Source: a virus
Direction: 5' to 3' (one strand)
Length of the DNA: 40,227 bases
Virus genome (UHGV): UHGV-0148877
The notes beneath the pieces were generated by a model, which saw only the letters and a program-made list of their open reading frames with translations, had not been told where the DNA came from and did not search any database. Below, in pieces: positions 2,001-34,598 of the stretch. Both the position numbers and the translations under genes were made by a program. Position 1 is the first letter of the stretch; every line of letters begins with the position of its first letter.

Positions 2001-2297
2001 TCAAATAGAGAAATAAACACAAAAACAAAAAACAACAGGAACAGCAAAATCCAACAGACTTCCCACATCCCACACGCGTGGATCAAAACCTCCCCACCAC
2101 GGCATGTTGATACGTTTCCCTTTCCCAAACTTTTCTATCCAGCGATATTCTGCCTGGGTGTGTTCACGCGCAATGAAGAACGTACAACCGGCTATCGCAC
2201 CGTAAGCCCAGTTTCCGGTAAAAATACCAACCAGTACCTGAGCCACAAAAGCGCAAAGCGAGTGAAGAAATGGAGTGACATCAATGCTCTTAATCAT
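2001..2297 (-). CDS. Small membrane protein translationally coupled to the tailspike gene
   Basis: 98 aa; ATG overlaps the tailspike stop (ATGA); two hydrophobic segments; function unknown. Confidence 0.45.
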   Translation of the reverse strand: MIKSIDVTPFLHSLCAFVAQVLVGIFTGNWAYGAIAGCTFFIAREHTQAEYRWIEKFGKGKRINMPWWGGFDPRVWDVGSLLDFAVPVVFCFCVYFSI

Positions 2298-4483
2298 GAA
2301 ACTTCCCCATTGGTTGAAAATATGGCTCCTCCAACGCCAAGTGTATTTCGTGTTGTGCTCAACCTCAGAGGGCTGGAGTCAGAATTAGAATATCCTGTAG
2401 CAGAAATAAAAGATCCTCCACTAATAGTCAACTGCGGAACATCGGCTATATCTGAATAAGTTCTGTCAGCAACAGTATTATTTATAGCCACATATGATCC
2501 AAAAAAACTTCTTATTGTTTGGTTTTTAACTTTACTTCCTTCAATGGTTATCCTACTACCACAGTCGGCAATAAATCCTGAATCTGCATCCAGCGTTGCA
2601 TTCATAAAAGAAGCTTCAGCTCTCTCTACATCAATCCATCTAATATCTTTTGTGGGATTTGCACCAAATACATGACAAATATTAGAGTTAAACCTTACAC
2701 CATCTTGGAGGTGCATTAATTTTTTTATATCTGTACCCCATAGCCTTGGAAAATTAACAGATGCTCCTGCATGGCAATCAAATCCCAGCTCAGCCCCTGA
2801 GATATCTACAGCCTTTCCTGAAATAACAGCACCAGTGTCTGCATTAACGGCTGTTCCACAATTGCGCATATCATTACCAGCAACATCAACGCAACCCGCA
2901 CCATCAATACGCACACCAAGTGCACATCCATAAAAACCTTTTTCAATATTTGGTTCAAGGACTTTACCACTTGTTTCTGCATCACTTTCTTCAACGTCAT
3001 GTCGTCTTGCATCAACATATGCTGTATGAATGCAGGTTAATCCACGATATGAGCAATGTATAGTTTTATGGTCGCGTATATTAACATTTGAACCATCTCT
3101 TACATTCCATCCTATATAACAATAGCTTGCACTTGACCCCTGAAAATCTGCTTTAACATTATAAATACAATTAACTGACGCAACCGTACTCTCTGTGCAC
3201 CGTTCAAACTTGCTTACAGGCATTGATGCCTTGACATTATTTACCAGTTGCAGGGAAGAGTATCTGCTATAAGAAAAATCACATACGTAATACCCTTCTG
3301 GCATATATGCAGCAACACTTTCCTCATCAGGAGCACATCCGGTATGATATGCACTAATTTTTGCACCAAAACTACCATGAATTCCAACGTAGAACTTTCG
3401 AGCACCTGAATACGGATAGAAATTAAGTTCAGCTTTTTGAGTTACAATAAATGCACAAACATCGCTATCATCTCTATTTTCTTCGATCTGAATAGCAAAT
3501 ACAGGACTTTTTGCTGCATCGCAAATGTAAAATAAATACTTGTATTCGTAATACGTTCTAACGATTTTAGTAAACAAACGAGTGTCAGAGAAAACCACTG
3601 AGTCTTCTGATGTTATTTTAATCCAAGACAAATCAACACCTGAACTGAATTCAATTTGATAGTTGATAATATGCCCGGTCTTAATTCTTATTTCGCAGAA
3701 AGCATTACCACCATCCCACATAGGTCTCATTGACTGGGCTGCAATGATTGCATCTTTGAGTGTAGGGTAATCACCCCATTCGCCAACAGTAATAACAAAA
3801 GTATAATATGAGTTAAAAACAGCGGCATTTTTGCCTTTGGATATCAACTCCTTAATCATAAAAATATTATCTTCGTAATCACAAGGAGAAATTATATCCC
3901 TCATTTTGCTTTGAAATGTTCGTTGTCTTGCCCCGCTTCCTGACGGTATAAACCAACCAAAACCACCAACAACCCCGGCGATTGCAGCATCGACATAATT
4001 ACGCATTGAGCGATTATTTACAGCGTCCTGCTCAAATGATGGATCTGCAAGGTTAGAAATTTTGTTTTGCTTTGCATCGTAATATTTTGCAAGCAAAGAT
4101 GGTTTCATCAATGCACGTCTGAACCACCCAAAACATCGCTGGATCAGCATCGTCAGGTAGTCAAATGCATCTTCATGAACTTCGGGGAAAAATTTTCCCT
4201 GATTGCGAAGATCAGTCTCCTGCACCACATCAAGCACACGCTCTATCGTAATTCGCCAGCCAGCAGCAAGCGGAGACGGAAGAACCACAGAACCGCCACT
4301 ATAAGTGCCCGCCCCAGTTACCGTATAACCGGTATCCAGAACCAATTCTGTTACGTTCCCGTTCAGGTCAGACACCTGAACAACCAGGTCTGATTTTTTG
4401 AAAATACGAAAAGTATACGGAAACGATGTCGTAACGCCGTTACCTGTGTATTCGTTGTGGTCAACTTCGGTTGAGACCGTCAT
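2294..4483 (-). CDS. Tailspike / receptor-binding protein
   Basis: 729 aa; N-terminus MTVSTEVDHNEYTGNGVTTSFPYTF resembles the conserved particle-binding domain of podovirus tailspikes; rest is Gly/Ser/Asn-rich as in beta-helix depolymerases; ATG with GGAG RBS; the C-terminal two thirds is visibly more AT-rich than flanking DNA. Confidence 0.8.
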   Translation of the reverse strand: MTVSTEVDHNEYTGNGVTTSFPYTFRIFKKSDLVVQVSDLNGNVTELVLDTGYTVTGAGTYSGGSVVLPSPLAAGWRITIERVLDVVQETDLRNQGKFFPEVHEDAFDYLTMLIQRCFGWFRRALMKPSLLAKYYDAKQNKISNLADPSFEQDAVNNRSMRNYVDAAIAGVVGGFGWFIPSGSGARQRTFQSKMRDIISPCDYEDNIFMIKELISKGKNAAVFNSYYTFVITVGEWGDYPTLKDAIIAAQSMRPMWDGGNAFCEIRIKTGHIINYQIEFSSGVDLSWIKITSEDSVVFSDTRLFTKIVRTYYEYKYLFYICDAAKSPVFAIQIEENRDDSDVCAFIVTQKAELNFYPYSGARKFYVGIHGSFGAKISAYHTGCAPDEESVAAYMPEGYYVCDFSYSRYSSLQLVNNVKASMPVSKFERCTESTVASVNCIYNVKADFQGSSASYCYIGWNVRDGSNVNIRDHKTIHCSYRGLTCIHTAYVDARRHDVEESDAETSGKVLEPNIEKGFYGCALGVRIDGAGCVDVAGNDMRNCGTAVNADTGAVISGKAVDISGAELGFDCHAGASVNFPRLWGTDIKKLMHLQDGVRFNSNICHVFGANPTKDIRWIDVERAEASFMNATLDADSGFIADCGSRITIEGSKVKNQTIRSFFGSYVAINNTVADRTYSDIADVPQLTISGGSFISATGYSNSDSSPLRLSTTRNTLGVGGAIFSTNGEVS

Positions 4484-4586
4484 GTTAAATCTCCAGATAG
4501 TCGCAGCACCCGTTGCGCCGCATATCTGGTTATTCTATTACCTGAAAAACCACATATGGATAGAAAGGATGTAAATACGAATAGAT

Positions 4587-4603
4587 ATTACCTTTCGGGT
4601 AAT
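4587..4603. promoter_or_regulatory. Operator palindrome ATTACC-TTTCG-GGTAAT
   Basis: Perfect 6+6 inverted repeat, about 75 nt upstream of the SOS-regulated small gene; an upstream hybrid copy ATTACC-TGAAA-AACCAC lies at 4538-4554. Confidence 0.55.
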
Positions 4604-4639
4604 TTGCAAAACGTGCTGGATAGCAAACAAATTATTTGC

Positions 4640-4659
4640 TACTGTATAAATATACAGTT
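4640..4659 (+). promoter_or_regulatory. LexA (SOS) box TACTGTATAAATATACAGTT
   Basis: Perfect CTGT-N8-ACAG with AT-rich spacer and TA flanks (core 4642-4657), 23 nt upstream of the ATG at 4680. Confidence 0.7.
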
Positions 4660-4679
4660 ATTGCATGGAGAAGATTAAG

Positions 4680-4937
4680 ATGCAGCAGTATCACTATCCA
4701 CTGGAAGACGGATTTACCGAAAGGATTCACACGCCAGAAGGCGTCAGGTCACTGGTGGAGGGATCGCACTTGATGAAATTACTCCGGGATCTCGATAAGG
4801 ATGGATTTAATGTCGATGGCCCACTTGCCGAACTGACTGCACTGATTAACTACGTCACCAGCTCACAGATGTCTATGCAGGATCTGCAAACACATCTCGA
4901 CTATTGTGCCGAACAATTACGAAAACAAACCCGGTAA
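4680..4937 (+). CDS. Small SOS-regulated protein paralogous to the antirepressor C-terminal domain (candidate antirepressor)
   Basis: 85 aa from the ATG at 4680 (GGAGAAG RBS); LexA box directly upstream; aligns by eye (about 40% identity over about 40 residues) with the C-terminal about 70 aa of the Bro-N antirepressor at 6083-6769 (IHTPEGV/IHSPSGV, AELTALINYV/AELTTMFCYI, DLQTHLDY/DIQTHAEY). Confidence 0.5.
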   Translation: MQQYHYPLEDGFTERIHTPEGVRSLVEGSHLMKLLRDLDKDGFNVDGPLAELTALINYVTSSQMSMQDLQTHLDYCAEQLRKQTR

Positions 4938-4939
4938 AT

Positions 4940-4975
4940 TTAAAGGCCGCAAGAGCGGCCTATCGTTTCGCTTTG
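4940..4975. terminator. Bidirectional hairpin terminator between convergent genes
   Basis: AGGCCGC-AAGA-GCGGCCT hairpin flanked by A/T-rich runs on both sides, between the 4680-4937 (+) and 4960-5688 (-) genes. Confidence 0.5.
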
Positions 4976-5688
4976 TGCTCATCCCAGCACGTTTTGCACC
5001 ATGCCATTAAGCCGTCCGCATTTTGATTATTAGGGTAAAAGCTGGTTCGTTTTCTGCGGACATTACAAATTGGGCACCACTTCATATGGCGTGTATTCTT
5101 TGGGCCATCGAGACACCTTGCACACCACTTAGTCAATCCATCTGGATTTTTTGACGATTTCCTGAATTTTTCATATGGAAGGTTTATTCTGCATCGCAAG
5201 CACTGCTTGCTACCACTTGAAACTCTGTTAGCTGATTCTTCTTTTGGCGGCGATACAGAAGGTATTCTTGCTGGCTCTGATACTGCCTGAGGTGCTTTTT
5301 TAGATGACTGAGACGATATGTCATCACCAGGGAATCTTCCATGATATGCCGGACGCGTTGACACTCCAGGTGGAAGCTCAGCTGTAAACGGCTTTGGCTG
5401 AATCAGTTGCCTCTCTTTTGCTAACTCCTGCTGTTTATAATATGTCTGGATTACCGCACTATCATAAGCAGGAGGTGCGGAAATATTAGGCGCATTACCT
5501 CCAGTTTTTTGAAACTGAGTAGAGGTGTGTTCTATCACCTGTGTACGATTAATCGTTATCTCCCCATCTTCGGTCTTTATCGTTTTGTTATGATTAACGA
5601 CCGTACGATCAGAGATCTTAGTCTTGTTCTGGTTGATAACGTAAATAATCACCGCAACCACACCAACAACTATCCAGAAAACTTCCAT
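4960..5688 (-). CDS. Membrane-anchored protein with tandem Cys-rich (zinc-ribbon-like) C-terminal repeats
   Basis: 242 aa; N-terminal TM helix (VFWIVVGVVAVIIYVI), Pro/Ser-rich linker, then two repeats of C-x2-C ... DGL-x2-WC-x2-C (CLRC...DGLTKWCARC; CPIC...DGLMAWCKTC); AT-rich; no family recognised. Confidence 0.55.
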   Translation of the reverse strand: MEVFWIVVGVVAVIIYVINQNKTKISDRTVVNHNKTIKTEDGEITINRTQVIEHTSTQFQKTGGNAPNISAPPAYDSAVIQTYYKQQELAKERQLIQPKPFTAELPPGVSTRPAYHGRFPGDDISSQSSKKAPQAVSEPARIPSVSPPKEESANRVSSGSKQCLRCRINLPYEKFRKSSKNPDGLTKWCARCLDGPKNTRHMKWCPICNVRRKRTSFYPNNQNADGLMAWCKTCWDEHKAKR

Positions 5689-5707
5689 TGCTTTTCCTCA
5701 CAATAAC

Positions 5708-5724
5708 ATTACTTTAAAGGTAAT
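5708..5724. promoter_or_regulatory. Operator-like palindrome ATTACT-TTAAA-GGTAAT
   Basis: 9/10 core match, 20 nt upstream of the start of the minus-strand membrane-protein gene (5688). Confidence 0.4.
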
Positions 5725-5800
5725 ATCTTGCTTTCAGGTGATCAAGCGTTAAACGCAATCAACCAAATACGGTTGATTTTAATATTTCTTCGCGTTTATC

Positions 5801-5817
5801 ATTACCTTTGCGGTAAA
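5801..5817. promoter_or_regulatory. Operator palindrome ATTACC-TTTGC-GGTAAA
   Basis: Perfect TTACC-N5-GGTAA core in the divergent region between the membrane-protein gene and the antirepressor gene. Confidence 0.5.
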
Positions 5818-6082
5818 TTTACATCGCACTCCTCTTGTGCCATAGTAATCGGGCACTGGCAAAATCCAGTGCCGGGATTGGCGTCCCGAGTTACTACAGA
5901 GGCACATATGCCGCATAAGCGGTTTTTTTATGTGTAAAGCGCACCTATTCTATGGTGGGCTGTGTGGGGGCACCGAAAGGTGCGCCGGGTCCTTTGTAGC
6001 CGGTTACGCCAACCCTGCACAGTTCACCACCAACCGATTGGCGTCGGTAGTGGTGATTAACCTAACTACAAAGGTGATCGCT

Positions 6083-6769
6083 ATGACTGCTAACGTAACC
6101 CCATCTGTTTTTCATTTTGAATCAGAAGCAACCATTCGAGCCATTGTTATTGATGGAAATCCTTGGTTTGTTGCCAAAGACGTTATTAAAGCTCTTCAAC
6201 TGACAAACCCCACTATGTCAATAAAATCTCTTGATGATGATGAAAGGGCTAAATTTAACTTAGGCCGTCAAGGCGAAACCAATATTATCAACGAGTCAGG
6301 CCTCTACACACTGATCCTCCGCTGCCGCGACGCAGTGACACCAGGCACTATCCCCTACCGCTTTCGTAAATGGGTTACAGGTGAGGTTCTTCCTCAGATC
6401 CGCCGCACCGGAAGTTACATTAAAAACTCGCTCCCGCAGGAAGAACGCATAAAGATGGTTGCCGACCAGGTAGCCAACGCCACGGCGTCAGCAGTAATGC
6501 AGGCGATGAAGATAGAGAACAAAACCTACAGTGCCCCACTGAAGCCCGGCTACCGCAGCCTGATTCATTCGCCGTCTGGTGTTCTCGGCCTGACGGAGAA
6601 CTCACTGCTGATGAATCTGCTGAACCAGTTACAGGACGACGGGCACGACGTATCGGGCGCGGCGGCGGAGCTGACCACCATGTTCTGCTACATCGTCGGT
6701 GTGAGCAAATGCCTGCGTGATATCCAGACGCACGCGGAGTACATCAACGACAAGGCAGGGTTCTTCTGA
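6083..6769 (+). CDS. Antirepressor with Bro-N domain
   Basis: 228 aa from the ATG at 6083 (AAGGTGA RBS); N-terminus IRAIVIDGNPWFVAKDVIKAL matches the Bro-N pattern; C-terminal domain paralogous to the 4680-4937 product. Confidence 0.8.
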   Translation: MTANVTPSVFHFESEATIRAIVIDGNPWFVAKDVIKALQLTNPTMSIKSLDDDERAKFNLGRQGETNIINESGLYTLILRCRDAVTPGTIPYRFRKWVTGEVLPQIRRTGSYIKNSLPQEERIKMVADQVANATASAVMQAMKIENKTYSAPLKPGYRSLIHSPSGVLGLTENSLLMNLLNQLQDDGHDVSGAAAELTTMFCYIVGVSKCLRDIQTHAEYINDKAGFF

Positions 6770-6777
6770 CGGGCGGC

Positions 6778-6800
6778 GGCACAGGGATGTGCCTTTAAAT
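6778..6800 (+). terminator. Possible intrinsic terminator after the antirepressor gene
   Basis: GGCACA-GGGA-TGTGCC hairpin followed by TTTAAAT. Confidence 0.35.
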
Positions 6801-6813
6801 AATTCTGTACAGA

Positions 6814-6842
6814 TTGCAGACTGTGGGTGAATAGCGTACTAT
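6814..6842 (+). promoter_or_regulatory. Sigma70-like promoter (TTGCAG-17-TACTAT) overlapping an operator
   Basis: -35 TTGCAG at 6814-6819, 17-bp spacer, -10 TACTAT at 6837-6842; the palindrome at 6841-6857 overlaps the -10 and start region. Confidence 0.45.
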
Positions 6843-6857
6843 TACCTCAAGGGTAAA
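6841..6857. promoter_or_regulatory. Operator palindrome ATTACC-TCAAG-GGTAAA
   Basis: Perfect TTACC-N5-GGTAA core overlapping the -10 of the promoter that reads into the toxin-antitoxin-like pair. Confidence 0.5.
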
Positions 6858-6916
6858 CGGATTGGTTTCATTTTTATTAATCCGTGTAATGAACTTATGA
6901 GATATGAGGTAATGTC

Positions 6917-7096
6917 ATGCGAAACGAAAAATTGCAGATGCGTAGAGCGCAAGCTGCCGCAAGACGTTCTTTCAATGGAAGCGTAGAGTGCGTAAAAGTT
7001 ACTATGACAAAAGATCACGCAAGTCGCGTATCCCGCGCTTTCTTTGATTCTCGTAACAATAAGGAAAATTATGAGTTCGTCTGCGTCGCAGAATGA
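6917..7096 (+). CDS. Small basic protein, candidate antitoxin (below the ORF-track cut-off)
   Basis: 59 aa (MRNEKLQMRRAQAAARRSF...), ATG with GAGGTAAT RBS; overlaps the start of the downstream toxin-like gene by 26 nt, the usual antitoxin-toxin arrangement. Confidence 0.3.
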   Translation: MRNEKLQMRRAQAAARRSFNGSVECVKVTMTKDHASRVSRAFFDSRNNKENYEFVCVAE

Positions 7097-7616
7097 TAAA
7101 AATCAAATTGTCAGATATAAGGGTCGAGTATTGCATACGCAAAATTTCTCGGCCCTTTGTGCATCTGATCTTGAGCTGAAGAAAGTATCTGATGCCTTTA
7201 CCCAGTATTGGAAAACGGGATACCATCCATCTCTTGGTAAAGATGCTGCATTTGCTCGTCCGACAGAAATGCTTAAACTAAATGTCAGGCATACTCATGT
7301 CGATAACCAAGACTATATTCCAGAAGATAGTGATAAAAAACACACTGGTAAAAAATCATCTTGGGATGCATGGAAAAAAATAGCGTCTGTGCAAGTAAAA
7401 TGCATACCAACAAGTAATTGCTTTTTAGTTTATTCGGTAAATCACAATCGTGATGCGCTGGTTATGTTTTTTGTTGACGCAGATGCCCACAACATAACTG
7501 AGCAAGAAGAGTTTAAAGAGGCAGCAATCACTATCAGTTATCAATTCTTTGAGAAAACAAAAACAGAACCAATGCCTTTAGAAGAAGATCTTTTTTCTGA
7601 TAAATGGAAGGAATAA
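7071..7616 (+). CDS. YafO-like toxin-family protein (putative ribosome-dependent mRNA interferase)
   Basis: 181 aa from the ATG at 7071 (AAGGAAAA RBS); segments DAFTQYWKTGYHPSLGKDAAF, LKLNVRHTHV and CFLVYSVNHNRDALVMFFV resemble the conserved blocks I recall for YafO-family toxins; AT-rich; family assignment is from memory. Confidence 0.45.
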   Translation: MSSSASQNDKNQIVRYKGRVLHTQNFSALCASDLELKKVSDAFTQYWKTGYHPSLGKDAAFARPTEMLKLNVRHTHVDNQDYIPEDSDKKHTGKKSSWDAWKKIASVQVKCIPTSNCFLVYSVNHNRDALVMFFVDADAHNITEQEEFKEAAITISYQFFEKTKTEPMPLEEDLFSDKWKE

Positions 7617-7711
7617 GCCCGCGCCGCGGGCTTTTTTGTGGACGAAACAAAAGTCAGTGCTACACTCATTGACGCCACATTGAGGTGGATTATAGATGGA
7701 AATTTTTCACA

Positions 7712-7873
7712 ATGAAAAAAGCATTTGCTGCACTGTTCGTTTTGTTGTCTCTGGTAGCTTCAACTCAGGCCTTTGCCGGTCGTTGTCAGCACGACAGCGA
7801 TACTGCCGCTGACGGCTCCCGCTGCGGTGGGCGTTCTGCGGATTCCCGTCCGGGCGGCGGTGGCATTCGTTAA
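7712..7873 (+). CDS. Small secreted peptide (signal peptide plus about 31-aa Gly/Arg/Asp-rich mature part with 2 Cys)
   Basis: MKKAFAALFVLLSLVASTQAFA then GRCQHDSDTAADGSRCGG...; classical signal peptide with AFA-G cleavage site; followed at once by a hairpin terminator. Confidence 0.4.
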   Translation: MKKAFAALFVLLSLVASTQAFAGRCQHDSDTAADGSRCGGRSADSRPGGGGIR

Positions 7874-7900
7874 AAACAAGGCCGCGAAAGCGGCCTGTTT
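7872..7900. terminator. Bidirectional intrinsic terminator
   Basis: AAGGCCGC-GAAA-GCGGCCT hairpin with A-run upstream and T-run downstream, between convergent genes 7712-7873 (+) and 7903-8754 (-). Confidence 0.6.
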
Positions 7901-7902
7901 GA

Positions 7903-8754
7903 TCACTGTGCAGTTTTCGCTGATCGATTTTCAGCTCTAAATTCAAGAACCGTTTCAATATTTCTTTCCTTCAGCATATCAATAACATTTTTATTCATTT
8001 GACTATCACTGGTTAATAACTGGTAAACGTTGCTTCTCTCTTTATCAGAGTTTTCTTTAACAGCTGCTTTGCATGCCAAATGCTTATTGAAATTTTCTAC
8101 ATCGCTAGTACAGGAATTTACGGCTGCTGATGAAATATCAGACGCTGAAGAAACACCGTCATCCAAACGTTTTATAGCATTTTCTATACATGAGTTAAGG
8201 GAATAAACGACAACTGAGCGATACCCTTCAGACGCACACCATTCTAAATTTCTTGAAGGATCGAGTGGTTTTACTTCGCTGGATTGAATTAACTTGTCAA
8301 AAACTGACTTATATTCAATCTGTTTTTTATCTATAGCCCATACTTCAGTAGCTGATTTATAATTCCCCGTATGCCTATTAACATCAAATCCATGTTTTAT
8401 AAGCAAATCTGCCCATGAAAGATTTATTGATTCATTGTTATGAGGCCATTTTCCTGTCAGAACCGCCCCCATAGACCCCATATATCCGCCATATGATGGT
8501 ATAGCACCATGGCTCAGTAACTTCTCTGCAACCACAGGGCAATTAATTACATAAGAGGCGTAAAGCCCATTCCATAAAGCCCCTCTATAGTAATCGCCAC
8601 GATTAGGTTCTTTTAAGTCGATAGCCTTTGATAATTGTTCGCACGTTTTGCATGCATCAAAGTTATCCTTATTGCATTGCAATGAACTGGCAGCTGTAGG
8701 ATTTACAGAGACTATTGAAAGCACTATGCCAAAAAACAAATTTATTTTTTTCAT
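7903..8754 (-). CDS. Secreted Cys-containing protein of unknown function
   Basis: 283 aa; N-terminal signal peptide MKKINLFFGIVLSIVSVNPTAASS; about 8 Cys; strongly AT-rich relative to the structural genes; ATG 1 nt after the stop of the 1129-aa protein gene. Confidence 0.6.
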   Translation of the reverse strand: MKKINLFFGIVLSIVSVNPTAASSLQCNKDNFDACKTCEQLSKAIDLKEPNRGDYYRGALWNGLYASYVINCPVVAEKLLSHGAIPSYGGYMGSMGAVLTGKWPHNNESINLSWADLLIKHGFDVNRHTGNYKSATEVWAIDKKQIEYKSVFDKLIQSSEVKPLDPSRNLEWCASEGYRSVVVYSLNSCIENAIKRLDDGVSSASDISSAAVNSCTSDVENFNKHLACKAAVKENSDKERSNVYQLLTSDSQMNKNVIDMLKERNIETVLEFRAENRSAKTAQ

Positions 8755-8755
8755 C

Positions 8756-11700
8756 CTATTTCATCTGCTCTTCAACTTTATTTAGTAATGGTGATATCGC
8801 CCACAGATTCTGAAAAGGTAGCATTTTACGGACAGCGTGGGTTTGCTGGCTGTCAAATTCTCCGTTAAGTACACCATTTGCAACCGTCGCGGCATCACCG
8901 CCAAGATCAAAGGTAGGACCAAGTAAAGCACCAATAGCATTACGACTCTGAAACCTTGATACCGGAGGCGCACCAAACATCGCGCCAAGACCAAACCTAC
9001 CGCCGCTTATGTTCTCAACGGTATTCAGCGGCTCAGAGAGCCAGCCAAGCATTCCGCCCCGGTCGATCCCCTCTTTCACAAGGTTATTCCAGCTGTAGTC
9101 GATATCGCGACCGCTTAACTTCTGTTTCATCATATAGACCATTGAGCCAAGCGCAATCGTGCCAAGCGCACCAAGATAGAATGCAGCATCGCCCTGCTGG
9201 ATACCAGATACCAGCACCCTGTTATGCTGTGCGAAGATAAACGTTTTGAACTGCGTGATCATCTTCCAGCCTTCTTTACTAAAAAACAGCGGTGTATCAC
9301 CTACGCCAGGCGTTACAATCACTGAGTCTACATCTTTCAGCACTGCAGACTGGAAAATCTCTCTAGCGAAACGGTCATCCCACAGATGACTATGCCCGGT
9401 TAACAGCCCGTCCATATCCTCTCCGTGCTTCCCGAATTGCTCCCCGATTCGGCGCAGAACATCTTCATTGATGCCGACCTGTGCCATCTTCCGCATTTCA
9501 CTTTTGGAGAGCGTGCCACCAGCAGAAACTTGGCGAGCCGCGTCAAGTATCCTCGACTGCACTATCATCCCAGACCATGATTTAAGTGCGCTGTTCCACT
9601 GATTCATCAGCGTCCAGTTACCGAATTTCTGCGTCATCCAGTTCAGACCTCGCTCAGCGGCGCTTCTCCGGCTATAGGGGTCAGTAAGATCCGCTATAGC
9701 CTTTGTACGCGTAGACAGGACATAATCAAGCCCAACTGCCATTTCTCGCAAATCCCTGGTTGCAATTTTCACTGAGTCCATATTTTTAAGCATGCTTACC
9801 ATTGGTCCGAGAGATTTTCTCAGGCCATGCTGCATCATCGGTCGCATCAGATCAGTTGCAGCGGAGACAGTCATTCCACCAAGCAAACGGAGGAAGTTAA
9901 TATTCCTAGCAACTCGCCCGGCACGAACAAAGAAACTGCGTGGATCTTGAGGTGCACCGTAAGTACCAAGCAGTCGATCACGCATAGCCGTAATATCCCT
10001 AATATCAGCCTCCCGTTGCTTCTCAAGAACTGCACGTCGTTTAGGTGTTTTAGCCTCTTTTATTAGCCGGGTATATTCCTCACTAACCTGACGGATTTGC
10101 TCCCCCATATCTTTACGGCCAAACTGCGCAGTCAGCTCAATTTCTGGTGCCACCTGCCGGAGATAACTTTCCATGATGTAGTTAACATCTGATTCAAGAA
10201 AATCTTCTATACGCTCATCAGGAATAAGCAGCGTTCTGCTTTTAGTGAAACCAGCCCGACCAACGAGTCTCTCTGGGATAATATCGGCTGGTACAAGCCC
10301 GGAAGGTGCGCCTATTATTTTATTCACGATCTCGTCAGCAGCGTCCTCTGCTTCCTCTCGGGATAGAGGCTCCATCTGCTTCAGTGCTCGCTCGCGGCTT
10401 GCATTCAGCCTTGTGGTTGAATTTGCCCGTTTTTGCAGTCGGCGAAGCTCAGAACGATATTTCCGTGGATTATCCAGCAACTCCATATGGCGCTGATAGA
10501 CAGGAAGCTCACTCTTTGCCTGCGCTATATCATCAAGGCGTGTTTTAAGGTCAGAGCTTTCTTTCATCATTCTTGCCTGAAGTTTTTCTGATGAAGTCTC
10601 GGCCAACTCTTTTTCTATTCTTGTAAGACGCGCCTGTGTGTCAGTCTCCTGAGATATAAGCTTATTTCGTTTATCCAGTTCTTCCATGAGTAGAATTTTT
10701 TTACCAGACCATTTCTCCGCTTCAGCGATTTCACTAGCGAGAGCATCAGCGCGCGGTGCTGATTCCTCTGCAGTTTTTAGCAATGAATTTATCTTTTCAA
10801 TTCGCTGACCTGCTTTGTCAGCACCTTTGGCACTAATCACTTGTATCCAGTTGGCAATTCGCCCTCTGAATTCAGTGCGGTCGGAAAGTATCTTATCGAA
10901 CTTATAAATGCGGGGAAGATAACTCTTCGCCGTCACGACATCGATATCCTCAGGAAGGATCCCCAATTCCTGCATACGGGCTTTTGTGGTCTCAAAAATG
11001 GGGCGGATTCTGGCGGCTGCTTGTGAAACCTCAGGAATATCACTCTGATCACCACGGCGCATAGCCATGCCAACAGCTTCATTGAAATCAATAAAGTTCA
11101 TCCTCTTCACGCCGCGGGCGCTGACAGATTTGCTGTACTGCTGGTAAGCATCACGAGTAGCTTCCATCTGCTTATAAAGCATGGCGTCGTATTGCTTAAT
11201 CTTAGTCTCGACTGCCGTAAACGTAGCCAACCCCTCATCATTTTTGGCGAAGAAATAGTTATTTTCGGCAAGCTGCTGGTTAATCTGACGGGAGACAAGA
11301 GATGGTGATTGCGCCAAGCGGCCAGCAGGAGTGACACTCAACGTTTTGTTAGCAAGTCCAAGTCCAGCGAGCTGTTCCTGATCGAGTGTGGTATTGAAAA
11401 CCTGAGCTGCACCAATGCTTTGAGGAGAATCCATACCTCGCAAATGATTACCTACTGAGTTAACCACTGCCTCGCGCGCGCTAGGTCCAGCAAGTAGCTG
11501 TGCACCAGCACCAAGGATCCCACCAACGAGAGCATCAACAACAACGTTCGATACGCTCTCCATCGGTGAGCGAGCTTCCTGAGTGGCCTGTAATGCGGCT
11601 TCTGATACTCCCCCACCAGCAGCATTCGCCAGGGCAAAACGCCCTGCCGTCTCAGCAATACTTCCTCCACGCGCTACCGCCCCTACAGGGATGAACATTG

Positions 11701-12145: not shown

Positions 12146-14892
12146 TATTTGCCCCCTGCGTATATATTGCTCGGAAGGTAATTGGCTGAACCATAACCGA
12201 ATGGTTTGGTCAGATCTGGAGGAGTATATCCATCTTTATTGCTGAACTGCGGCAGCGGATTGCCTTCTCTCCGCACTCTAGCCTCATCAACACGCTGTTG
12301 CTGGAACTGAATGGTTTGCCTGTACATTGGAGATGTCAGCTGATCCGGCTTGAAACGAACAGGGAGACCATTTTCTCCAATATAATTTCTCGGTTCTATC
12401 GCTCCGTTTGCGTCAGGCTGTAAAACCATAACAGCATAACTCCTATCCCTTGCCGTAAGGCCATCAGAAACAAGTATTAAGTCCGTATCACTGCGAGGAC
12501 CGCCAAAGGATTTTGATTTAAGCTCGCGTTTTTCCTGCTCCCACTGCCCCTGTATCCAGTTACCAGCACCATTATTTACTCCGTACAATGCCTCAGGTGC
12601 ATACTTCATAACCTCTGCTTTGCCATTAACTGTAGAAACTCCCCAGGTGGTTCTGATCATGGCATTGGTCATTTTCTCAGCCTGTTCTGCATCGCCACCT
12701 GTCTGTACAAAGTTAGCATCGTAAATTGTCTGGTAATCTCGCTGATAGGCCGCATTTGATTTTCCTGGATCGGTAATATCCGGAGACCACGAACCAAAGG
12801 AAGTCAGACTGCTGGCGTTATTTTGTGCAGCAGTTGCCCTCGCCGCGACATATTTTTTGTCTCGCATGGCAGTGGAAAGCATCTGTTTCATTCGGTCATC
12901 CTGTTGGAACACCTGGCTGTAAGCCATATCAACAGCCTTATCCTCCGGCACGCCAGCGCGGGAATAATCGTAAACCTTGCCGTAAAATGCCATCGTACTT
13001 TTATCAAGTGTTGCCGCTGCCGCCGGATTATTATCGAATAACTGACCGTAGAATTTTGCCATCGGGACAACCAGCGCAGGATCTCTTGATGTTGCTCCAC
13101 TGTTAAGCATTGTTTTAACCTGAGTTGGTATCATGCCGCTTTTAGTTGTGGCGGTGACCAGTGTATTGATGCTCTGCGGATCAGATATGGAAAACGAAGG
13201 CGCGATATCCTGCGCGAAATAACGGTCTACCGCTGCCTGATTGTTTTTGTCGTTAGGGTCCAGCGGGAAGTTATTTTGCATTGAAGACACGAACCTGTTT
13301 CTTCCCTGCTGAATCTCCCACTCCCTATCCATCTCTTTAAATTTGGCCTGCATTTTCTCCCAGCGTTGCTGGTTAGCTGCAAATCCAGGAGCATTTGGAT
13401 CCTGTGGACGTAAACGTTCAAGAATGTCTTGTCGTCCTTCTGGAGTGAGGTCTTTAGCGGCACCAATGACACCTCCATATTGTATCTGCGCCTGCATATC
13501 CTTCCACTTCATAGCGCCAATGCGCGGACCATTGGCCCGGATAAAATCGTCCTCAGAAGGTAACTTCTCAGGTTTCAATCCTTCATCAAGGGCTGAATAT
13601 GCATCTTTAACTACGGTGCTAAGCTGGTCCGCATACTGCTGGCGGTACTGATTTCTCAGCTCATTAGCCTGCCTCAATGCCTGTATTTGCATTTGAGGGC
13701 TCATAGCGTCAAATGCCGCATTGCCCGTATAACGCTTAGGTGAATCAAGGTTAGTTAGACCAAGGGCTGCCGAGATACCAGTTTCAAGCTGTTCGGTGCT
13801 ATAAGGCATACTGCCATTTTCGTGTTTAATAATCCCAGCACATAAAGCAGCTAGTGTCTTTGGGTTAGAGATATCAAGCTGATCATTCTCCCCAACACCA
13901 AGCTCACTACACAATGCCCTAATATAAGCATCAGTATTATTACCATCACTAGCCGGAGCATAGCGATTAACAATCTCGCTAACGGTGTCATAGCCTTGAC
14001 GCTGGTAAGACAACATATTTTTACCCAACGCGCGGATTCCATGCTCAGGGGTAGCAAACGTTGCAAAACGTCCATCGCTACCGATCTGACCTTCCCACGG
14101 GTTAGATTTGCTCGCTTCAATATTACCAGGGTTATTATTACGTAAACCACGAGCATCCAATGAATTACCATGTGATATTGCACGACTCACACCATCAAGA
14201 TCCCCTGGCTCTCCATTAACCTGAAGAAACTCGTTGTATTTTTGAGCGATATTTCCTATCCATGCTTGCTGCCCCATTTGTTCCTTGAGCTGAGTTTTCT
14301 GCTGAACACGCCACTCATCAGGAAGCCCATGCGCATCAGCGTATTGATCAATAGATTCAAATCGCTGCTTGGCTAAATCGACAAATGCTTGGTTATCGCT
14401 ATATAGCCCCGCAGACTGAGTGACAGCCAATGCATTTCCTGACAAATACGTTTGATCTTGGAATTGCTGAAACTGCCCAACTTCATATCGACGTGCCTGA
14501 TTGTAATAAGACTGCATAGACTGCTGGAGTTGAAAGGATAATTTATTCCTTTCCTCACTTTCAGGAATTGAGCCTAATAATGCCTGAGCCCTTTCCTGCA
14601 TATTTTTCATAACAGCGTCACTCTGACCAAGAGCGTTTTTACCCTGTTTAGAAATCAGCCCATTTTCAGGGTTGTTAATCTGGTCATCTGCAAATTGGTT
14701 AAATTGCAGTAACGCCTCCTGGGCCATAGCAACATTCGCTTTCTGCCTAGCTTCACCATATGCCACCGCATACTGATCTGCGACATTCGCCAGCACCTGA
14801 CCTGCTTGAGGAACATCGAAGGTCTGAAAACCACCGGTTTGCACACCACGACTTTGCACCTGGCGTCCGGATGTAGTAGGAACAACAGGCAT
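12145..14892 (-). CDS. Internal virion protein with putative peptidoglycan-hydrolase domain
   Basis: 915 aa; contains GLRNNNPGNIEASKSNPWEGQ...FATFATPEHGIRALGKNML, recalled as a virion-associated muralytic-domain signature; start overlaps the downstream gene stop. Confidence 0.65.
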   Translation of the reverse strand: MPVVPTTSGRQVQSRGVQTGGFQTFDVPQAGQVLANVADQYAVAYGEARQKANVAMAQEALLQFNQFADDQINNPENGLISKQGKNALGQSDAVMKNMQERAQALLGSIPESEERNKLSFQLQQSMQSYYNQARRYEVGQFQQFQDQTYLSGNALAVTQSAGLYSDNQAFVDLAKQRFESIDQYADAHGLPDEWRVQQKTQLKEQMGQQAWIGNIAQKYNEFLQVNGEPGDLDGVSRAISHGNSLDARGLRNNNPGNIEASKSNPWEGQIGSDGRFATFATPEHGIRALGKNMLSYQRQGYDTVSEIVNRYAPASDGNNTDAYIRALCSELGVGENDQLDISNPKTLAALCAGIIKHENGSMPYSTEQLETGISAALGLTNLDSPKRYTGNAAFDAMSPQMQIQALRQANELRNQYRQQYADQLSTVVKDAYSALDEGLKPEKLPSEDDFIRANGPRIGAMKWKDMQAQIQYGGVIGAAKDLTPEGRQDILERLRPQDPNAPGFAANQQRWEKMQAKFKEMDREWEIQQGRNRFVSSMQNNFPLDPNDKNNQAAVDRYFAQDIAPSFSISDPQSINTLVTATTKSGMIPTQVKTMLNSGATSRDPALVVPMAKFYGQLFDNNPAAAATLDKSTMAFYGKVYDYSRAGVPEDKAVDMAYSQVFQQDDRMKQMLSTAMRDKKYVAARATAAQNNASSLTSFGSWSPDITDPGKSNAAYQRDYQTIYDANFVQTGGDAEQAEKMTNAMIRTTWGVSTVNGKAEVMKYAPEALYGVNNGAGNWIQGQWEQEKRELKSKSFGGPRSDTDLILVSDGLTARDRSYAVMVLQPDANGAIEPRNYIGENGLPVRFKPDQLTSPMYRQTIQFQQQRVDEARVRREGNPLPQFSNKDGYTPPDLTKPFGYGSANYLPSNIYAGGK

Positions 14893-15467
14893 CAGTAACC
14901 TCCTATTTTGAATCGGGAGTCAGAATTCATAAAACCTGAGTTAGATAACATTGGCGTCCCACCACTAGATGTACTTCCTTTAGAGAACGGACTCCACGTC
15001 CCACCAAACATCTGGTACGCACCGTATGCCTTCAGAGGCGCAGTGAGCAATGTTGTTGCTGCTCCCACATTCCCCTGTTTACGGGCTGAACTGGCTTCTG
15101 CTTTATAGTTGGCAGCCTGAACCTGATAACCGTAAGCCTCGCGTTGCGCGTTATTCACCGTCGTCAGAGAATCAAGAGCGCCAAACTGGGCAGTGTCGCC
15201 AAATATATCCAGCGCGTTACCTGTAGATAAATCAGCGCCGGTAGCCCCCATTGTCGCCGCCTGTGTACCAAGCCGCTGTCGGGTCTCTCTGCGCCGTTGC
15301 TCAGCTTCAGCGTTACCTCTGTTTATTGCATCATTTGCCTGAGCAGTGGCTATATCTGCGTTCGCTTCTGCAACCTTCGAGGCATACTTTCCCTGTTGGT
15401 ACTGGGTGTATGCCTGAATGCCACTCATGGCGAGCATTGCGCCACCAGCAATAACCGGATCGCACAT
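14892..15467 (-). CDS. Internal virion protein (small core protein)
   Basis: 191 aa, Ala/Gly/Gln-rich; position between tail-tube gene and the large ejection proteins. Confidence 0.5.
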   Translation of the reverse strand: MCDPVIAGGAMLAMSGIQAYTQYQQGKYASKVAEANADIATAQANDAINRGNAEAEQRRRETRQRLGTQAATMGATGADLSTGNALDIFGDTAQFGALDSLTTVNNAQREAYGYQVQAANYKAEASSARKQGNVGAATTLLTAPLKAYGAYQMFGGTWSPFSKGSTSSGGTPMLSNSGFMNSDSRFKIGGY

Positions 15468-24385: not shown

Positions 24386-24474
24386 ATCAATGACTCCGTA
24401 CGCAATTAAATTATTACCAATTTAACCACATATGATTTATTTATCGTAGATAGTTGACATTTAACGCACAAATT

Positions 24475-24812: not shown

Positions 24813-24889
24813 GTGGCATTAGCTCAGTTGGACAGAGCAACCGCCTTCTAAGCGGTTGGTCGCAGGTTCGAATCCTGCATGCCACGCCA
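24813..24889 (+). tRNA. tRNA-Arg (anticodon UCU)
   Basis: 77 nt folded by hand: 7-bp acceptor stem GTGGCAT/ATGCCAC, D stem GCTC/GAGC, anticodon stem ACCGC/GCGGT with loop CTTCTAA (anticodon TCT), T stem GCAGG/CCTGC with loop TTCGAAT, discriminator G, encoded CCA. Confidence 0.9.
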
Positions 24890-31566: not shown

Positions 31567-31611
31567 TAAAAACCACATAAGACACGAAATCAATAGATTT
31601 TAGAATATTTT

Positions 31612-33894: not shown

Positions 33895-33959
33895 TTCACC
33901 TATAAGGTAACAAAAATCAAGGATAGTTACCCATGAGGTGCATTTACCTGTTGGGTAAT
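33895..33959. promoter_or_regulatory. Tripartite operator cluster between the cro-like and repressor genes
   Basis: Three palindrome copies: TTCACC-TATAA-GGTAAC (33895-33911), GTTACC-CATGA-GGTGCA (33926-33942), TTTACC-TGTTG-GGTAAT (33943-33959), in the 154-bp divergent intergenic region. Confidence 0.6.
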
Positions 33960-34013: not shown

Positions 34014-34598
34014 ATGAAAAGTATCCAGGACGTCCGCAGGCAAAATCTCAACGACTTGATCGACCGTGAATTCAATGGTGTTCAGACGCGGATGGCTGAA
34101 AAACTTGGAACTCAGGCAAATCTGGTAAACCGCTGGGCTCTTGGCAAGAAGGTTATCGGCGACCAGGTTGCGCGAAAAATTGAAGCTGCCGCCAATAAAC
34201 CCCGTAACTGGCTTGATATCGATCGCTCGCTTTCTCAGGAAGGTTTTCAGCCTGTCGGCCCGAGTGATATAGGTCAGCTGGCTGCTCACAACCTGGAACG
34301 CTGGATGAGCGAAAGCCGCGACCTTTCAACGCAGGGAAAACTACACCGCGCATCCGGCGTCGCCCAGGTGACAATCAGCCGCCTGTTAAACAATGAGGTC
34401 AGCGTTTCCATTTCCACCCTGGAGAATGTTGCATCCGCATTCGGGCGTCATGGCTATGAATTACTGATTCACCCGCACGACCCTGCGACTATCAACTATG
34501 ACCGCTCGCGCTACGCATTGTTACCCGAAACCGAGAAAGCAAAGATCGAAAGTTACATTGAATTTGTCATCAACCAGAACGAAAAAAACAAACAATAA
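34014..34598 (+). CDS. Prophage repressor (CI-like, HTH; no S24 peptidase domain evident)
   Basis: 194 aa; N-terminal HTH (GVQTRMAEKLGTQANLVNRWALGKK) and a second HTH-like segment (ASGVAQVTISRLLNNE); divergent from cro-like gene; flanked by operator clusters; followed by a terminator. Confidence 0.7.
   Translation: MKSIQDVRRQNLNDLIDREFNGVQTRMAEKLGTQANLVNRWALGKKVIGDQVARKIEAAANKPRNWLDIDRSLSQEGFQPVGPSDIGQLAAHNLERWMSESRDLSTQGKLHRASGVAQVTISRLLNNEVSVSISTLENVASAFGRHGYELLIHPHDPATINYDRSRYALLPETEKAKIESYIEFVINQNEKNKQ

Follow-up and report, generated by a model that had tools for sequence, protein, structure and literature searches.

The 40,227-nucleotide (nt) virus genome UHGV-0148877, which we call the window, is a near-complete prophage with lysis genes at its left end and an integrase at its right end. 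It also encodes a portal protein, a small terminase, a tailspike, holins, and a family-19 endolysin. Here we describe the ~4.3 kb of non-structural sequence (4484-8755) between the tailspike open reading frame (ORF), which starts at 4483, and the gene for a 1129-amino-acid (aa) protein, which ends at 8756. This interval, or island, holds six transcription units on both strands (Table 1): the antirepressor gene ant (+), a gene for a 242-aa protein in what we call slot A (-), an isrK/C4/bro unit (+), a slot B cassette of genes for a 59-aa protein and a YafO-like protein (+), a gene for a 53-aa pre-peptide (+), and a gene for a 283-aa secreted protein (-). An earlier description made from the DNA letters alone (the sequence-only reading) had proposed an AT-rich accessory island in a P22-like phage, with mixed gene orientation and its own hairpin terminators. 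The orientation and the hairpins were borne out. Two GC-rich hairpins each lie between convergent genes, and more occur at 5910-5923 and after the YafO-like gene; terminator-like sites number 12, versus 4.5 +/- 2.3 in shuffled sequences.

The P22-like label proved wrong. The capsid protein belongs to the epsilon15-type GP7 family, a T7_gp14-like protein is encoded, and gene order follows phages phiV10 and TL-2011b, so P22-like identity was rejected. TL-2011b matches the island region at 96.6% identity over 75% coverage, phiV10 and other Uetakevirus-like phages match it piecewise, and Escherichia coli chromosomal prophages adjoining yfgI match it as well. By sequence, we place the phage among the epsilon15/phiV10-like temperate phages of E. 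coli. The attP core reported for phiV10/ZX5 was not found inside the window.

Table 1. Coordinates of the island features, the flanking genes, and related sites elsewhere in the window
Position	Strand	Feature	Details
2294-4483	-	Tailspike/tail-fibre gene, left flank	Conserved N-terminal head-binding part, variable receptor-binding part
4588-4602		Palindrome TTACCTTTCGGGTAA, 5' of ant	Ends 1 nt before a TTGCAA -35-like hexamer; in all relatives
4640-4659	+	LexA box TACTGTATAAATATACAGTT	Core CTGT-N8-ACAG at 4642-4657
4680-4937	+	ant, antirepressor, 85 aa	PDB 5D50 chain E; phrog_450
4944-4961		GC-rich hairpin between convergent ant and 242-aa genes	Probably a two-way terminator
4960-5688	-	Slot A cargo, 242-aa protein	phrog_6762
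5709-5723		Palindrome, 1 mismatch	21 nt 5' of the 242-aa start codon; perfect in relatives
5802-5816		Palindrome TTACCTTTGCGGTAA	Ends 1 nt before the isrK promoter -35
5818-5846	+	isrK promoter-like site	TTTACA, 17 nt, TG-CATAGT; ends 6 nt 5' of IsrK; kept in relatives
5853-5929	+	IsrK-like small RNA	Rfam RF01394, 74.2 bits (cutoff 50)
5878-5884; 5894-5902	+	IsrK target copies	a1 TTGGCGT; b1 CTACAGAGG
5948-6034	+	C4-like antisense RNA	Rfam RF01695, 79.5 bits (cutoff 45)
5991-5999; 6006-6012	+	C4 loops	b' CCTTTGTAG; a' ACGCCAA
6038-6077	+	Bro leader targets	a2 TTGGCGT 6038-6044; b2 CTACAAAGG 6066-6074
6083-6769	+	bro::ant, 228 aa	Bro-N at ~aa 18-104; Ant-like C-terminal domain at ~aa 143-224
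6842-6856		Palindrome TTACCTCAAGGGTAA, 5' of slot B cassette	Also before other cassettes in relatives and the Serratia pair
6917-7096	+	Slot B gene 1, 59 aa, candidate antitoxin	phrog_6685; overlaps next gene by 26 nt
7071-7616	+	Slot B gene 2, YafO-like, 181 aa	
7615-7633	+	Strong terminator-like hairpin plus T run	3' of the YafO-like gene
7712-7873	+	53-aa pre-peptide gene	phrog_14503; GC 0.574
7879-7896		GC-rich hairpin between convergent 53-aa and 283-aa genes	
7903-8754	-	283-aa secreted protein	ATG 1 nt after the 1129-aa stop codon
8756-12145	-	1129-aa internal-virion/ejection-type protein, right flank	Preceded by 915-aa and 191-aa genes
14892-15467	-	191-aa protein, T7_gp14 family	33.7 bits (cutoff 27)
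33896-33910; 33944-33958		Palindromes, cro-like/rep intergenic region	
34014-34598	+	Rep, prophage repressor, 194 aa, outside the island	Two helix-turn-helix domains
4588, 5709, 5802, 6842, 24476, 27274, 27292, 31551, 31613, 33896, 33944, 34656, 34718		All 13 palindromes	First positions

Antirepressor, repressor, and candidate operators

The small gene at the left edge of the island, ant, encodes a protein that aligns over 83 residues with chain E ("Anti-repressor protein") of PDB 5D50, at ~88% identity (E=3.3e-47). PDB 5D50 is the Rep-Ant complex of Salmonella phage SPC32H. The start of ant was set at ATG 4680; an alternative at ATG 4665 was rejected because it is out of frame in phiV10 and TL-2011b. 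The sequence-only reading had placed an SOS-regulated small gene here, and the LexA box upstream bears this out. This 20-mer, TACTGTATAAATATACAGTT, departs from the E. coli LexA consensus at two positions, and the exact CTGT-N8-ACAG core precedes ant in all nine relatives checked, a Salmonella phage and an Enterobacter phage among them. The gene itself was found in 13 of 13 relatives, spanning five genera (Escherichia, Salmonella, Enterobacter, Serratia, and Morganella). Of 5426 complete E. coli genomes surveyed, 529 (about one in ten) carry it. Judged by homology, the SOS-controlled small gene is the known SPC32H-type antirepressor, a core regulator rather than an accessory gene. In Salmonella phage SPNIS2 (~5244-5535) a LexA box and ant lie on the plus strand, and the record annotates an opposite-strand ORF at 5206-5499 that is probably a mis-annotation of ant.

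By analogy with SPC32H, the target of Ant would be the prophage repressor Rep, which is encoded outside the island. Rep has two helix-turn-helix (HTH) domains and lacks an S24 protease domain (Peptidase_S24). It is 100% identical to phiV10 gp40 and homologous to chain A of PDB 5D50 (E=4e-42). Kim & Ryu 2013 (J Virol) reportedly found that LexA controls ant in SPC32H and that Rep is not cleaved there. The SPC32H Rep tetramer binds palindromic sites and is split by the Ant tetramer (PMC9638917), and the Gifsy antirepressors follow the same logic (PMC3121763).

A candidate for the sites bound by Rep was found in the palindrome TTACC-N5-GGTAA. Allowing at most one mismatch, it occurs 13 times in the window versus 0.52 expected, and none of 100 shuffles reached 13. 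The palindromes cluster around the repressor gene, with single sites at the late-operon and island promoters. Two lie in the intergenic region between a cro-like gene and rep, where a weaker third can be read by eye. Two pairs with 62-bp spacing (34656/34718 and 31551/31613) flank the -35 element and overlap the -10 element of promoters at 34.7 kb and 31.6 kb. The positions of the palindromes are kept in phiV10 and every relative, even before different cassettes, and also in Serratia. On this distribution, TTACC-N5-GGTAA is probably the operator of Rep (putative), and the whole looks like a scattered operator network for a two-HTH repressor, reminiscent of P1 C1. The palindromes further suggest that ant, the 242-aa gene, isrK-C4-bro, and the 59-aa/YafO-like pair form a Rep regulon. 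Because a probable Rep operator precedes each of them, we argue that these four units are repressor-controlled and not freely expressed in the lysogen.

A separate motif, ATGTGGTT, followed 5-6 nt on by GGTAAT or a TTACC half-site, recurs at 4540-4575, 24420-24445, and 31570-31590 (minus strand). These sites sit 5' of the tailspike gene, the late operon, and an early gene. The motif and its half-site may belong to a promoter or regulator site shared by these genes.

The isrK-C4-bro unit and a model of induction control

Two structured RNAs, related to IsrK and C4, precede bro. Both score above their Rfam cutoffs in the same arrangement in all eight Bro-carrying relatives, where C4 reaches 61-79 bits. 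The IsrK-like RNA has its own terminator, formed by the hairpin at 5910-5923 and a U run. C4 begins only 18 nt beyond this terminator, and transcription therefore has to read through it to give C4 and the bro mRNA. A comparable arrangement is known from Gifsy-1, in which transcription reads through the IsrK terminator into a long, translationally silent transcript on which the short IsrK acts (PMC4825925).

The two RNAs and the bro leader share a set of short pairing sites. Segment b' of C4 is complementary to b2 in the leader, and a' is complementary to a2; b2 overlaps the Shine-Dalgarno sequence AAGGTGA (6071-6077) of the bro ATG at 6083. IsrK carries a further copy of each target. Covariation was assessed over nine loci, the window and eight relatives, among which two alleles of a and three of b occur in five combinations. 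At each of the nine, the versions in IsrK, C4, and the leader fit one another, with one G-U pair allowed. Going by this order and pairing, the isrK-C4-bro unit is the known P1-type immI regulatory design. A small conserved ORF equivalent to the Gifsy-1 orf45 was not seen between C4 and bro.

The protein encoded by this unit joins two antirepressor-like domains. The Bro-N domain, which the sequence-only reading had named, clears the Pfam cutoff of 25.6 bits with a score of 71.7. The C-terminal domain shares 40% identity with Ant (E=1e-16) and matches chain E of PDB 5D50 (E=1.9e-13). A 279-aa ORF from 5930 was rejected as Bro: its 5' part is C4 RNA, and the true start lies at 6083. The same Ant-like domain is fused to a P22-type Ant in TL-2011b (8559-8861), where it is 83% identical to Bro residues 128-228, and to a pRha-family protein in a Serratia prophage (3660-3824). 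Because it is fused to various antirepressor N termini, the Ant-like domain is plausibly the Rep-binding part of Bro::Ant, and a single repressor-binding module appears to be common to several large antirepressors. In phage ZX5, whose Rep sequence is the same as that of phiV10, overexpression of the Bro-N protein ORF4 cut lysogeny ~1000-fold (PMC9782041); the paper makes no mention of LexA, and its retrieved passages do not describe the small Ant, C4, or IsrK.

In phiV10 (6841-7520) a frameshift splits the Bro-N gene within the Ant-like C-terminal domain. The two parts are annotated as gp23 and the 29-aa gp22, and the gp22 sequence is that of the window's Bro C terminus; the second antirepressor of phiV10 may be defective. 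Just 3' of bro in the window, a GGCACA-GGGA-TGTGCC hairpin with an A/T-rich tail (6779-6794) may be a weak terminator, and bro transcription might run on into the slot B cassette.

We read the interval as the induction and anti-immunity control region of an epsilon15/phiV10-type phage, a conserved regulatory backbone with exchangeable passengers set between its elements, and give this reading a probability of about three in four. LexA would occupy the near-consensus box before ant, and DNA damage would remove LexA and allow the 85-aa Ant, whose function is known from SPC32H, to be made. Ant, by analogy, would bind the non-cleavable two-HTH Rep and take it off its operators, leading to prophage induction. 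A second promoter, on the pattern of P1 and Gifsy-1, would yield the short IsrK-like RNA, to which terminator read-through would add the C4-like RNA and the Bro::Ant mRNA. The two exposed C4 segments are predicted to pair with the leader and cover the ribosome-binding site (RBS), leaving Bro::Ant untranslated, and IsrK, bearing copies of both target sites, could compete for C4. Since the phages carry different matched a/b alleles, a superinfecting relative with other alleles would be expected to escape the resident C4, as is the case for P1 versus P7. The Rep operators before ant, the 242-aa gene, isrK, and the slot B cassette would bring all four units under Rep, by repression or activation. 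The passengers (the 242-aa zinc-ribbon protein, the 59-aa/YafO-like pair, and the 53-aa peptide) would be mobile cargo.

Some observations weigh against this picture. The palindromes at ant and isrK lie just 5' of the -35 elements, centered near -44, from where Rep could activate or repress. For the ant promoter, the -10 element is indistinct. Finally, Gifsy-1 IsrK acts through the upstream orf45, of which no equivalent is evident in the window.

Passenger genes, the last ejection gene, and competing readings

The GC content of the island is 0.435, compared with 0.485 for the window and 0.480 for the right-flank gene, and places it among the lowest 7% of equal-size windows. The claim that GC is lower than in the flanking structural genes therefore holds on the right but fails on the left, where the receptor-binding part of the tailspike gene has a GC of 0.383, below that of the island. 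The low overall value would suit a single foreign AT-rich island gained in one horizontal transfer, an origin we regard as extremely improbable. GC varies gene by gene from 0.37 (the 283-aa and YafO-like genes) to 0.57 (the 53-aa gene); backbone elements occur in every relative, with slots that vary independently; the minimal version, in Morganella, consists of ant and a 283-aa homologue alone; and flanking direct repeats pointing to a single insertion were not found.

Comparison with relatives, proposed by the sequence-only reading as a check, did show that island content differs between them, with individual slots occupied by different genes. The description as an accessory island stands for these slots; it does not extend to ant, present in every relative, or to the 283-aa gene, which is syntenic with ejection genes. 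The likening of the position to P22 immI also stands: the region is variable, carries immunity-control genes, and in TL-2011b holds P22-type sar, arc, and ant. The statement that several genes belong to no recognizable family was only partly right: all of the genes fall into PHROG families, and a homologue of the small gene has a solved structure.

In slot A, the 242-aa protein has one N-terminal hydrophobic or transmembrane helix, a variable proline-rich linker, and two C-terminal CxxC-x22-CxxC zinc-ribbon motifs that are invariant, in agreement with the earlier description of a membrane protein with tandem Cys motifs. They are similar to the ribbons at the N termini of the EndoVII, HNH, and Lar-like phage families. 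The gene occurs in 129 of the 5426 E. coli genomes. Serratia prophages carry homologues in a different slot; in Buttiauxella, homologues lie in an unrelated mobile element.

The slot B genes had been called a toxin-antitoxin-like pair. The small overlapping partner is consistent with this, but the YafO-like protein reaches only 23.2 bits against Pfam YafO_toxin (cutoff 25), and the 59-aa protein matched no Pfam or NCBIfam family. Two YafO-like paralogues likewise stay under the cutoff (19.7 and 20.1 bits), and a third has no match. RefSeq records label the 181-aa protein a YafO family toxin. A sequence search of the PDB returned nothing for this protein or its profile; a structural model of low confidence (pLDDT 60.7) shows a weak fold resemblance to the HigB/RelE ribosome-dependent RNases. 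The pair is conserved in Serratia and present in 61 of the E. coli genomes surveyed. Other relatives carry different two-gene cassettes in slot B or a YafO-like paralogue in slot A. Slot B of one relative (L007, 4009-4531) holds a pair of small membrane proteins (62 and 110 aa), and that of another (L008, 4019-4820) a 108-aa protein and a DUF2335 membrane protein, each with the same palindrome 5'.

The 53-aa pre-peptide consists of a signal peptide ending in AFA and a 31-aa mature part with two Cys. Its gene has terminators on both sides and no Rep palindrome, with a promoter-like site, TTGACG-16-TATAGA, read by eye at 7669-7696, and was found only in epsilon15-like E. coli and Klebsiella phages. 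Together with the 283-aa protein it accounts for the two signal-peptide proteins predicted earlier, both having signal-peptide-like N termini. None of the seven island proteins matched a PADLOC-DB 2.0 family at E<=0.1, and NCBIfam gave no match for any of them.

The 283-aa protein has a signal peptide, two domains, and eight invariant Cys; its N-terminal half is weakly ankyrin-like and its C-terminal domain helical. A single nucleotide separates the stop codon of the 1129-aa gene from the ATG of the 283-aa gene, which we therefore read as the last gene of the ejection operon. Given the T7_gp14 match, the 191-, 915-, and 1129-aa genes look like a gp14/15/16-type ejection set. No sigma-70-like promoter was found within 850 nt 5' of the 283-aa gene. 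Homologues at 40-60% identity occupy the same place in Serratia and Morganella, after genes for proteins of 154, 190, 916-935, and 1129-1131 aa, and among the E. coli genomes the 283-aa gene is found in 106 and the adjacent 1129-aa gene end in 120. By this synteny, the gene is the conserved last member of a gp14/15/16-like ejection operon and not cargo. The sequence-only reading had held that conserved structural components among its genes would count against it, and the 283-aa gene does stay after an ejection-type gene across genera. phiV10 has a different ejection set (gp18-gp20), followed by a 46-aa membrane protein.

A profile search of 1.84 billion proteins showed that both 283-aa domains also stand alone as secreted proteins. 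No domain-specific Pfam family was found in the stand-alone homologues scanned; one larger protein has TPR repeats, and these lie elsewhere in it. On the neighboring 1129-aa protein, a "DUF919" match covers 46 residues of a region that looks coiled-coil by eye (23.4 bits, cutoff 21). The family is a baculovirus one, and the label is probably without functional meaning. A tRNA-Arg (anticodon TCT) lies at 24813-24889 (+), on the opposite strand just 5' of the late structural operon.

The sequence-only reading saw this region as the most likely place for an undescribed exclusion or defence function. That the island mainly carries lysogen-expressed genes of this type, at least one of a new kind, seems to us unlikely. 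Slots A and B do resemble hot spots: YafO-like toxins occur there beside three different partners, as do pairs of small membrane proteins and a DUF2335 membrane protein in other cassettes. The cargo is also patchy, each item occurring in 11-24% of ant-carrying E. coli genomes. The 242-aa family also resides in an unrelated mobile element; the 53-aa gene, flanked by terminators and without a Rep palindrome, resembles a classic moron; and in P22 the corresponding position, following the last ejection gene, is that of sieA. However, ant, isrK, C4, bro::ant, and their control sites account for ~40% of the island, and no gene has a PADLOC match. The 242-aa gene and the slot B cassettes lie behind a probable Rep operator, in Serratia too, which suggests repressor control, and the 283-aa gene appears to be driven from the late operon, with no promoter-like site in the 850 nt upstream. 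What remains of the earlier claim is an immI-like variable region with uncharacterised cargo; nothing found supports a defence role directly.

The probable Rep operator before the 242-aa gene and every slot B cassette would fit cargo that serves the lytic cycle, switched on once Rep is inactivated and aiding host takeover, a possibility we entertain without favoring it. The suggested roles are equally tentative: arrest of host translation for the YafO-like protein, action on DNA or RNA at the membrane for the zinc-ribbon protein, and, for the periplasmic 283-aa protein, a late function connected with ejection proteins or the envelope. The position of the 283-aa gene would suit translational coupling to the last ejection gene, and it is inherited together with the ejection module in four genera; the weak likeness of the YafO-like model to HigB/RelE RNases points the same way. 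Against this, the cargo is dispensable, as phiV10, Tyrion, and Morganella prophages lack most of it; Rep may activate these genes or repress them; and the YafO-like fold comes from the low-confidence model.

We consider it quite unlikely that the 283-aa protein is an exclusion factor matched to the phage's own ejection apparatus, or that the Rep-gated toxin cassettes are a guard. In such a scheme, the 283-aa protein could bind, in the periplasm, the ejected channel proteins of incoming relatives, and the operator-gated cassettes (YafO-like genes and membrane-protein pairs) could fire once Rep is inactivated by a foreign antirepressor. Where the ejection module is of the alternative, phiV10 type, small membrane proteins are encoded at the 283-aa spot. 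The shared inheritance of the 283-aa gene and its ejection module would be compatible with a matched exclusion factor or with a late periplasmic helper.

Implications and comparison with known systems

As a control region for induction and anti-immunity, the interval has a backbone that, by homology, belongs to already described regulatory systems. The points of interest that remain are the RNA lock with its alleles, the Ant domain common to several proteins, the dispersed probable operators, and three or four genes yet to be characterized. The prophages concerned are common in E. coli, judging from the incidence of ant, and the backbone suggests how DNA damage probably wakes them. Related phages may override one another's immunity through matched RNA alleles and an Ant domain carried on different N termini. 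These points are relevant to how prophages of gut and pathogenic E. coli are induced and cross-induced. In the search for new defence genes, the 4.3 kb narrow to the 242-aa gene, the 59-aa/YafO-like pair, and the 53-aa gene, plus the conserved late 283-aa gene, with the caution that most of these candidates appear to be under phage repressor control.

P22 immI (mnt, arc, ant, and sar) lies between ejection-type genes and the tailspike gene, with sieA nearby at the point noted above, and the island shares this map position as well as an antirepressor under antisense-RNA control. It differs in that the window has no sar, arc, or mnt and the phage is not P22-like. An Rfam scan detected no sar RNA in the window; sar, arc, mnt, and a P22-type ant were found only in the relative TL-2011b.

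Like E. coli YafN-YafO, the slot B pair combines a protein with a weak YafO_toxin match and a small upstream gene that overlaps it. Unlike that system, the toxin-like protein is ~50 aa longer and scores below the Pfam cutoff, the 59-aa partner belongs to no antitoxin family, and the YafO-like paralogues have differing partners.

For the RNA unit, Gifsy-1 isrK-orf45-anrP (Hershko-Shalev et al. 2016, PMC4825925) also has an IsrK family RNA 5' of an antirepressor-like gene. Neither an orf45 equivalent nor an adjacent AntQ antiterminator is seen in the window, which belongs to another phage lineage. In APSE phages both Rfam families lie beside a Bro-N gene, and C4 a' and b' match the region upstream of Bro (Rouil et al. 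2020, PMC7313666); that report does not draw a link to a LexA-controlled Ant paralogue or a repressor operator, and presents no allelic series. The order of elements is that of P1/P7 immI (c4, icd, ant; Citron & Schuster 1990), with a1 and b1, then C4 a' and b', then a2 and b2 over the RBS of the antirepressor operon. Both systems also place C4 within the leader of its own target mRNA, use allele-specific pairing segments, and have a repressor operator, a probable one in the window, at the promoter. In the window, however, the a1/b1 segment is a separate terminated small RNA of the IsrK type, no icd-like ORF is evident, and the Bro-N::Ant-like fusion has no relationship to P1 Ant; the phage is a podovirus with a different repressor.

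The closest parallel for the switch as a whole is SPC32H. Its Ant is ~88% identical to that of the window, its Rep is homologous, with two HTH domains and without a protease domain, and a LexA box precedes an ant gene that lies outside the immunity region, beside the tail-fibre gene of an epsilon15-like phage. The two nevertheless differ: the window's Rep is of the phiV10 type and well diverged from SPC32H Rep, and the window has a second, larger Ant-domain protein and probable operators before ant, which may be additions to the SPC32H design.

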